Of a stretch of 60,591 bases of DNA, positions 37,033 through 37,213 are shown one piece after another. The notes under the pieces were generated by a model. The model was not told where the DNA came from. It did not search any database and worked only from the letters and a program-made list of their open reading frames with translations. The stretch's first letter is position 1. Every line of letters begins with the position of its first letter. The position numbers and the translations under genes were made by a program. Location of the stretch: positions 1 to 60,591 of the forward strand of contig MHMH01000006.1 of NCBI GenBank assembly GCA_001819335.1, given 5' to 3'. The DNA is from Candidatus Nealsonbacteria bacterium RIFCSPLOWO2_01_FULL_43_32 (GTDB taxonomy: Bacteria; Patescibacteriota; Minisyncoccia; Minisyncoccales; MHMH01).

Positions 37033-37104
37033 TGGCGACGACAGGACTTGCACCTGTAACCTTGGGCTTATGATGCCCCTGCTCCGCTATTGAGCTACGC
37101 CGCC
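37033..37104 (-). tRNA. tRNA with CAU anticodon (elongator Met or Ile2-type)
   Basis: Acceptor GGCGGCG/CGTCGCC. Anticodon loop ATCATAA. T arm ACAGG-TGCAAGT-CCTGT (non-canonical). 7-nt D-loop without GG. Confidence 0.75.
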
Positions 37105-37142
37105 GAGAAACCCCCCGTTAATGGAGGATTCTCGTATTGATG

Positions 37143-37213
37143 TTGCGGGGCTAGGAATTGCACCTAGGCTTCGGGCTTATGAGACCCGCGACCTACTACT
37201 GGTCCACCCCGCG
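37143..37213 (-). tRNA. Initiator tRNA-fMet (CAU)
   Basis: Acceptor CGCGGGG/CCCCGCA gives a C1xA72 mismatch as in bacterial initiators. Anticodon loop CTCATAA. T arm CTAGG-TGCAATT-CCTAG. Confidence 0.8.

Follow-up and report, generated by a model that had tools for sequence, protein, structure and literature searches.

The stretch of DNA analysed here, hereafter the window, is the complete 60.6-kb contig MHMH01000006.1 (60,591 nucleotides) of Candidatus Nealsonbacteria bacterium RIFCSPLOWO2_01_FULL_43_32, whose parent assembly comprises 552 kb in 23 contigs and is 88% complete. It carries five tRNA genes, all on the minus strand and all placed in the same register by ARAGORN and the Rfam model RF00005 (Table 1). 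Three of them, encoding an initiator tRNA-Met, a second tRNA with the anticodon CAU and, as the third gene, tRNA-Asp, form an iMet-Met-Asp cluster that is conserved in relatives.

Table 1. tRNA genes and putative flanking signals in the window, in coordinates of MHMH01000006.1
Feature	Position	Strand	Evidence and remarks
Initiator tRNA-Met(CAU)	37143..37213	-	ARAGORN, Rfam RF00005 (57.2 and 56.4 bits for the two CAU tRNAs, threshold 29)
Second CAU tRNA, elongator tRNA-Met	37033..37104	-	ARAGORN, Rfam RF00005
tRNA-Asp(GUC)	36937..37014	-	ARAGORN, Rfam; canonical G18G19, T-loop UUCAAAU, CCA encoded
tRNA-Val(CAC)	8381..8452	-	ARAGORN, Rfam; C55 at 8399, T-loop UCCGAAU, normal G18G19
tRNA-Ala(UGC)	10047..10118	-	ARAGORN, Rfam; canonical elbow, internal control
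Promoter-like site TTGACC-17-TAGAAT	37226..37254	-	Directly upstream of the initiator tRNA; consensus match only, 10/12 positions
Terminator-like GC-rich hairpin followed by a T run	36831..36848	-	About 90 nt downstream of tRNA-Asp; consensus match only

Both CAU tRNAs are recovered as full-length cloverleaves that cover Rfam model positions 1-71 and score above the gathering threshold, and each has a 7-nt T-loop on a 5-bp stem. In the initiator, the D-loop AGUAGUA and the T-loop UGCAAUU place A18 at 37197, G19 at 37196 and U54-G55-C56 at 37162-37160 (G55 at 37161); in the elongator, AAUAGCG and UGCAAGU place A18 at 37088, G19 at 37087, G21 at 37085 and U54-G55-C56 at 37052-37050 (G55 at 37051). 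The Rfam alignment reads both D-loops as A14-R15-U16-A18-G19-N20-N21. The canonical G18 and U55 are absent from both tRNAs, which have A18 and G55 instead, and the G19:C56 pair, U54 and A58, and the R15:Y48 Levitt pair are all present. The elongator ends its D-loop with G21, not the conserved A21 that its nearest relatives retain (AAUGGCA).

The original prediction had assigned non-canonical U54-G55-C56 T-loops to both CAU tRNAs, with coordinates and loop sequences that both programs reproduce; scoring with the covariance model upheld the register, and no alternative with a TTC T-loop emerged. Its description of the D-loops as lacking G18G19 stands only in part, as G18 is lost and G19 is retained opposite C56 in the Rfam alignment. 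It was also right that tRNA-Val has C at position 55 and that tRNA-Ala and tRNA-Asp are canonical, which leaves three of the five window tRNAs deviating. Across the whole 552-kb assembly, 20 tRNAs comprise two with G55, three with C55 and 15 canonical ones.

Identity of the two CAU tRNAs

The C1xA72 mismatch, the A11:U24 pair and the G:C-rich anticodon stem identify the first of the two as a bacterial-type initiator, here with a 4-nt variable loop. Positions 1 and 72 are unpaired in the window initiator, and A72 faces A, C or U across the initiators of the Parcubacteria order to which the source genome belongs; the D-stem GACC/GGUC supplies A11:U24, a pair that is A:U in 18 of 20 initiators of the order. 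The three G:C pairs expected at 29-31:39-41 are incomplete: G29:C41 and G30:C40 are present, 31:39 is U-G, and the three consecutive G:C pairs of the window initiator lie at 28-30. The three-G:C initiator rule is relaxed in this order: its 20 aligned initiators split evenly at 31:39, ten with U-G and ten with G:C, and A:U is frequent at 29:41.

The anticodon loops of CPR initiators hold two further peculiarities. Many have the loop CCCAUAA, with C33 for the near-universal U33 (for example, loci L012, L015, L018, L020 and L327). In two genomes of the same family as the source (G004 and G011), the A18/G55 initiator is split in the anticodon loop by a group I intron of about 210 nt (L007:216-425 and L008:1306-1515, both on the minus strand; RF00028, 93 and 90 bits), with the exons arranged as ...GGUCUCAUAA / intron / GCCCGAAG....

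We gathered the complete tRNA sets of four relatives (G008, G012, G028 and G035) with the Rfam model and fetched regions. Each holds exactly two CAU tRNAs and a tRNA-Ile(UAU), so the lysidine route is unused and the second CAU tRNA is an elongator tRNA-Met; its assignment as a lysidine-dependent tRNA-Ile2 is ruled out by the same sets. AUA is read in these four genomes by tRNA-Ile(UAU), a third CAU tRNA is absent, and the TilS route apparently is as well. The source assembly, with its 20 tRNAs at 88% completeness, could hold an additional canonical Met tRNA.

Elongator orthologues at the same place in the cluster of relatives have GG in the D-loop and U55 in the T-loop, with C55 in one case. 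The initiators closest to that of the window (97% identity) belong to G001 and G005, yet the elongator tRNA-Met of both genomes is canonical, which marks the elongator swap in the source genome as a recent event, independent of that in the initiator. The arms of the two window tRNAs differ in sequence. The cluster lies near a PheRS gene in the window, and in close relatives it is not conserved beside PheRS.

Conservation of the cloverleaf

Twenty initiators representing many families of the order were aligned, and all 400 cells of the cloverleaf stems are paired, against 33-49% in slid controls; 13 of the 20 pairs changed on both sides. The sole sequence with G18 in this set, from G008, is also the sole one with U55. 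Single-sequence folding of the window initiator returns a rod-like structure at -34.5 kcal/mol, against -29.7 kcal/mol for the cloverleaf (a difference of 4.8), and a rod is the predicted minimum free energy fold for 14 of the 20; however, its D-arm/T-arm pairs are unpaired in 11-15 of the 20 sequences, and it was therefore rejected in favour of the cloverleaf. A three-pair helix between D-loop and T-loop (G15:C56, U16-G55 and A18:U54) was also discarded: bases unable to form these pairs occur at 15 and 16, and the partner with which 15 covaries is 48.

The same picture extends to 113 distinct G55 tRNAs. U54, C56 and G19 are invariant, A57-A58 is kept in 111 and the whole pentaloop UGCAA in 111, 93 form the 15:48 Levitt pair with G:C and 11 with A:U, and position 59 is free to be U, A, G or C (A in 35). 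Judged from these alignments, the canonical core appears intact and the outer G19:C56 platform preserved.

Covariation of positions 18 and 55

Five whole tRNA sets, those of the source genome and the four relatives, were collected without selection at positions 18 or 55. Their 193 tRNAs divide into 178 with G18/U55, 11 with A18/G55, four with G18/C55 and none of mixed type (Fisher p = 4e-18). Among loci fetched by similarity or pattern, part of which were chosen by a pattern that fixes both 18 and 55, all 121 with G55 have A18-G19, and all 240 with U55 and all 15 with C55 have G18G19; seven automatic 'GG' calls among the G55 T-loops proved to be G15G16. Because of these pattern-fixed sites, two unbiased tests were made, one being the whole sets and the other a neutral pattern (R at 18, G or U at 55) run on 401 evenly drawn Patescibacteria genomes. 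Among the matches listed for the latter were about 150 initiators, in which 13 of 13 with G55 have A18 and all with U55 have G18.

The elbow covariation proposed at the outset is thus borne out: G55 occurs always with A18 and never with G18 in CPR tRNAs, and the deviation is not peculiar to this assembly. As 18:55 changes from G:U to A:G and G19:C56 is kept, the covariation is specific to the 18:55 contact. We also scanned all species for the discordant combination of G18G19 with G55, using a pattern with so few fixed bases that 118 of the 120 matches listed were due to chance. The other two are real, E. coli-like initiators with G18G19 and G55 from non-CPR metagenome-assembled genomes (MAGs; L170, Acutalibacteraceae, and L177, Chthoniobacter). 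Either the mixed form is not strictly impossible or these are sequencing errors.

The swap is not confined to Met tRNAs. In G008, a member of the same family (loci L274-L312), the initiator is canonical, A18/G55 occurs in tRNAs for Cys, Gly-GCC, Leu-UAA, Phe and Tyr, and Val-UAC has C55; G028 also carries A18/G55 in Pro-CGG. Elsewhere the pair is found in tRNAs for Thr, Lys and His and in the elongator tRNA-Met of L044, L138, L140 and L147. In G012 and G035, the initiator is the sole G55 tRNA, and in G028 it is one of two. By these patterns, the 18/55 switch occurred many times and in both directions, and G008 provides direct evidence of reversal within the family.

Distribution in CPR and phages

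The A18/G55 initiator is conserved, on a fully compensated cloverleaf, across the Parcubacteria order of the source genome. The exact initiator pattern occurs in 32 of the 401 sampled Patescibacteria and the neutral pattern adds about five, which brings the share to roughly 9%; these initiators are concentrated in the source order and a few other families, and most of the phylum is canonical. When one genome per prokaryotic species was scanned, the matches listed (at least 120) were from CPR, except for five chance matches and one MAG titled Rhodocyclaceae. The latter (L037, JADJEF010000005.1) is a 75-kb contig with a CPR-like A18/G55 initiator and an A18/G55 tRNA-Lys, and is probably mis-binned or else a mobile or phage element. 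Third-party MAGs closely related to the source genome carry the titles 'uncultured Candidatus Saccharibacteria', 'Bdellovibrionales' and 'Nanoarchaeota', which are unreliable for taxonomy.

The variant also occurs in viruses. The initiator pattern was found on at least 120 IMG/VR contigs (L423-L542). These have arrays of up to 28 mostly canonical tRNA genes, among which is an A18/G55 CAU tRNA that often resembles an initiator. A cultured and annotated case is the tRNA-Met of Campylobacter phage F336 (L544, MT863715.1, 15018-15092) and its relatives. BLAST of the window initiator against named phages gave no match, and it was a phage-derived query that found the named examples. The tRNA-Met genes of Vibrio phage phi-pp2 and of an Acinetobacter phage are canonical.

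T-loop enzymes and C55

A profile search did not find TruB_N (PF01509) in the source genome, and tblastn of four TruB proteins from the same order gave a best E value of 0.12 against it. A further 18 family members, many at 97-100% completeness, also gave no match (0/19 with the source genome); of 22 further families in the order, six have the domain. Across the phylum, 111 of 150 near-complete Patescibacteria have it and 39 (about a quarter) do not; all 14 control organisms were positive. Searches for Pus10_C, a TrmA-type methyltransferase and TrmFO found none in five family genomes (the source and four other members of its family), three of which have one RluA/RsuA-type synthase. With TruB, Pus10, TrmA and TrmFO not found, pseudouridine 55 and m5U54 are probably absent from all tRNAs of the family; G55, for its part, cannot become pseudouridine.

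Loss of TruB nonetheless does not explain the swap. The source genome, in which TruB_N was not found, has G55 in two tRNAs and C55 in three, yet G012, also without TruB, keeps U55 in 41 of 42 tRNAs, and G026, G028, G032 and G035 combine TruB with a G55 initiator. TruB_N matches were obtained for 11 of the 12 genomes in the even phylum sample whose initiator has G55, which contradicts a link between such initiators and the lack of TruB. There is also a divergent class of TruB_N matches, scoring 65-115 bits over profile positions of about 5-135 only, in ORFs of 250-330 aa; some genomes have it in addition to a normal TruB, and others have no other TruB_N gene (for example, G055, G127, G190, G449, G451 and G453).

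C55 is a separate case from G55, with G18G19 kept and no compensating change. The C55 tRNAs of the source assembly are Val-CAC, Lys-CUU and Arg-UCG, all with normal G18G19, and the tRNA-Val(UAC) of G008 has the same loops as the tRNA-Val(CAC) of the window. Some riboswitch classes accept C at the second T-loop position (10.1101/2022.12.26.521914), in keeping with a C55 that needs no change in its partner. None of the 14 genomes in which C55 tRNAs were seen has a high-scoring TruB. Nevertheless, outside the order, the comparison with lineage-matched controls was not significant (high-scoring TruB in 0 of 10 C55 genomes against 8 of 40 controls, p = 0.18; any TruB_N match in 4 of 10 against 23 of 40), and a link between C55 and the lack of TruB was set aside. 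The 40 controls are the first matches listed by a pattern scan and form a lineage-biased set with fewer high-scoring TruB genes, and many of them carry only the divergent TruB_N class.

A proposed alternative elbow

In the canonical elbow, residue 18 is inserted into the T-loop between its fourth and fifth positions (57 and 58) and pairs, through one hydrogen bond, with the 'universally conserved' pseudouridine 55, and G19:C56 offers an exposed flat face for recognition (PMC4810234, Zhang and Ferre-D'Amare 2016). T-loops outside tRNA have the consensus UGNRA, a functional optimum of (UGHAA)UU and an intercalating base that is almost exclusively adenosine; tRNA T-loops are set apart by U at position 2, and the tRNA-type UUCRA loops are functional but weaker than UGNRA in an unmodified riboswitch context (10.1101/2022.12.26.521914, a Batey-lab preprint). 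The T-loops of both window Met tRNAs read as the pentaloop UGCAA plus two bulged bases, UU in the initiator and GU in the elongator. Since (UGCAA)UU and (UGCAA)GU, together with A18, are exactly of the non-tRNA type, we infer that A18 most likely slots in between A57 and A58 to contact G55, the way G18 ordinarily meets pseudouridine 55; this geometry is proposed by analogy with generic T-loops.

We consider it likely that the window encodes working initiator and elongator Met tRNAs in which the elbow has been rebuilt through the double substitution of G18 by A18 and of U55 by G55. The lock between D-loop and T-loop would then retain the reverse-Hoogsteen pairing of U54 with A58, the contact of C56 with G19 and the Levitt pair R15:Y48, and the flat outer G19:C56 platform, which is read by the ribosome, RNase P and other partners, would stay in place. 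Translation with A18/G55 tRNAs would presumably proceed normally. Single changes would be deleterious, so that both sites switch together: in the yeast suppressor tRNA SUP4oc, no single mutation at G18-U55 is tolerated (Guy et al., PMC4117946), which may be why we see only the double change.

Alternative explanations

The CAU genes are almost certainly not pseudogenes, products of misassembly or foreign sequence binned in error. They do score about 10 bits below the other window tRNAs in Rfam, but the same variant recurs in more than 100 independent assemblies, its stems are fully compensated, the iMet-Met-Asp cluster is conserved, and tRNAs of this kind are the only CAU tRNAs in complete relatives. 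Very improbable, too, is a reading in which an ordinary GNRA tetraloop of G55-C56-A57-A58 closes the T-arm and the elbow between D-loop and T-loop has disappeared, a situation known from some mitochondrial tRNAs. GCAA does belong to the classic GNRA type, and where position 59 is A it could pair with U54; however, C56, the 'N' of such a tetraloop, does not vary in any of the 113 loops, G19 is always kept, U54 is invariant even though position 59 varies freely, A18 and G55 change in concert, and the Levitt pair shows its usual covariation. The invariance of C56 and the A18/G55 covariation led us to reject the free cap. Position 55 might instead drift once TruB and the m5U54 enzymes are lost and U55 is no longer needed as a substrate, an account that we think possible but lean against. 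It draws on the distribution of TruB_N, with the family devoid of matches in a largely positive phylum, on the negative tblastn, Pus10_C, TrmA-type and TrmFO searches, on the 5 of 20 source-genome tRNAs without U55, and on the confinement of C55 to genomes without a high-scoring TruB. It leaves the constant pairing of G55 with A18 unexplained, and it is countered by the nearly complete retention of U55 in G012, by the TruB-positive genomes with G55 initiators, and by the lack of significance of the C55 link against lineage-matched controls.

The rebuilt elbow favoured here leaves room for two candidate origins of the preference for initiators. The two states may be neutral, each locked in because two substitutions are needed to leave it, or selection may favour an elbow that is modification-independent or differently recognized. 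Selection, acting above all in the initiator, could mark or protect the tRNA at the elbow, change how a partner reads it (the IF3 N-domain, a modification enzyme, or a nuclease that targets tRNA as part of a defence or toxin system) or provide stability without modification; we regard this as unlikely, although several observations point towards it. The swap is strongly biased to the initiator in G012, G035 and G028, the A18/G55 initiator is conserved over the whole order, phage arrays place an A18/G55 CAU tRNA among mostly canonical ones, as does the Campylobacter phage F336 with its tRNA-Met, IF3 is reported to contact the initiator elbow (PMC9723500), and UUCRA loops perform worse than UGNRA in an unmodified riboswitch (10.1101/2022.12.26.521914). 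Against it, the G008 initiator is canonical and five of the elongators in that genome carry the swap, G55 initiators coexist with TruB in all but one of the 12 such genomes of the even phylum sample, no partner protein has been shown to co-vary, and, since leaving either state takes two mutations, long persistence would be possible without any advantage. The stronger proposal, that A18:G55 is a second, selected elbow design favoured in CPR and phage-encoded initiators and not a neutral variant, working either as a modification-independent, pre-organised elbow or through altered recognition by a factor (candidates are the IF3 N-domain, TruB as a chaperone, or a tRNA-targeting defence nuclease), is one that we likewise doubt. 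Were it true, the elbow would act as an identity or immunity element.

Relation to known elbows and T-loops

The window Met tRNAs share with the canonical elbow (PMC4810234) the 7-nt T-loop on a 5-bp stem, U54/A58, C56 facing G19, R15:Y48 and the cloverleaf, and differ from it in having G55 in place of pseudouridine or U, in inserting A18 in place of G18 and in that no pseudouridine 55 is possible. The T-loops of FMN and cobalamin riboswitches (10.1101/2022.12.26.521914) are matched in that UGCAA-UU fits both UGNRA and (UGHAA)UU and the partner is an adenosine; unlike those, the loop lies here inside a tRNA, pairs with the D-loop and engages its position 3 (C56) in a Watson-Crick pair with G19. 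As in tRNA-fMet of the E. coli metZWV/metY type, the window initiator combines CAU, C1xA72, A11:U24, a G:C-rich anticodon stem and A73, but it departs from that type through A18/G55, a 7-nt D-loop, a 4-nt variable loop and U31-G39 for G31:C39. Eukaryotic initiator tRNA and tRNA-Ala(AGC), whose altered T-loops have A54/A58 and A60 (PMC7566577, PMC3950347), likewise represent natural, conserved and paired departures in particular tRNA species; those changes concern positions 54/58/60 and 15/48, not 18/55, belong to another domain of life and are stated not to be seen in bacteria (PMC7566577). A further counterpart is the tRNA-Met of Campylobacter phage F336, with the D-loop AGUAGUA, the T-loop UGCAAAU and an initiator-like acceptor end, although it is a viral gene in a tRNA cluster with a proteobacterial host and is annotated simply as tRNA-Met.

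A full-text literature search found no paper on A18:G55 tRNAs, on a CPR-specific initiator elbow or on the loss of TruB in CPR, and a review of T-loop modifications is silent on G55, A18 and C55. Comparative sequence evidence shows A18/G55 to be a genuine variant of the tRNA elbow that is both conserved and compensated. To our knowledge, G18 and pseudouridine 55 are taken to be universal features of tRNA, and TruB is taken to be nearly universal among bacteria. The natural and conserved A18:G55 tRNAs would mean that the elbow has a second workable solution, one that ties tRNA to the generic T-loop of riboswitches and introns. A four-way set of G18/U55, A18/G55 and the two mixed forms could separate the roles of pseudouridine 55, of TruB and of the 18:55 contact in folding and initiation.

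For CPR and phages, tRNA annotation and the prediction of modifications should not presume pseudouridine 55, and the lower scores of A18/G55 tRNAs may cause initiators to be misclassified. Departures at position 54 occur as well: tRNA-Asp genes at L037, L114, L140 and L141 have the non-U54 T-loops AUCGUUA, AUCAACA and GUCAGCA.
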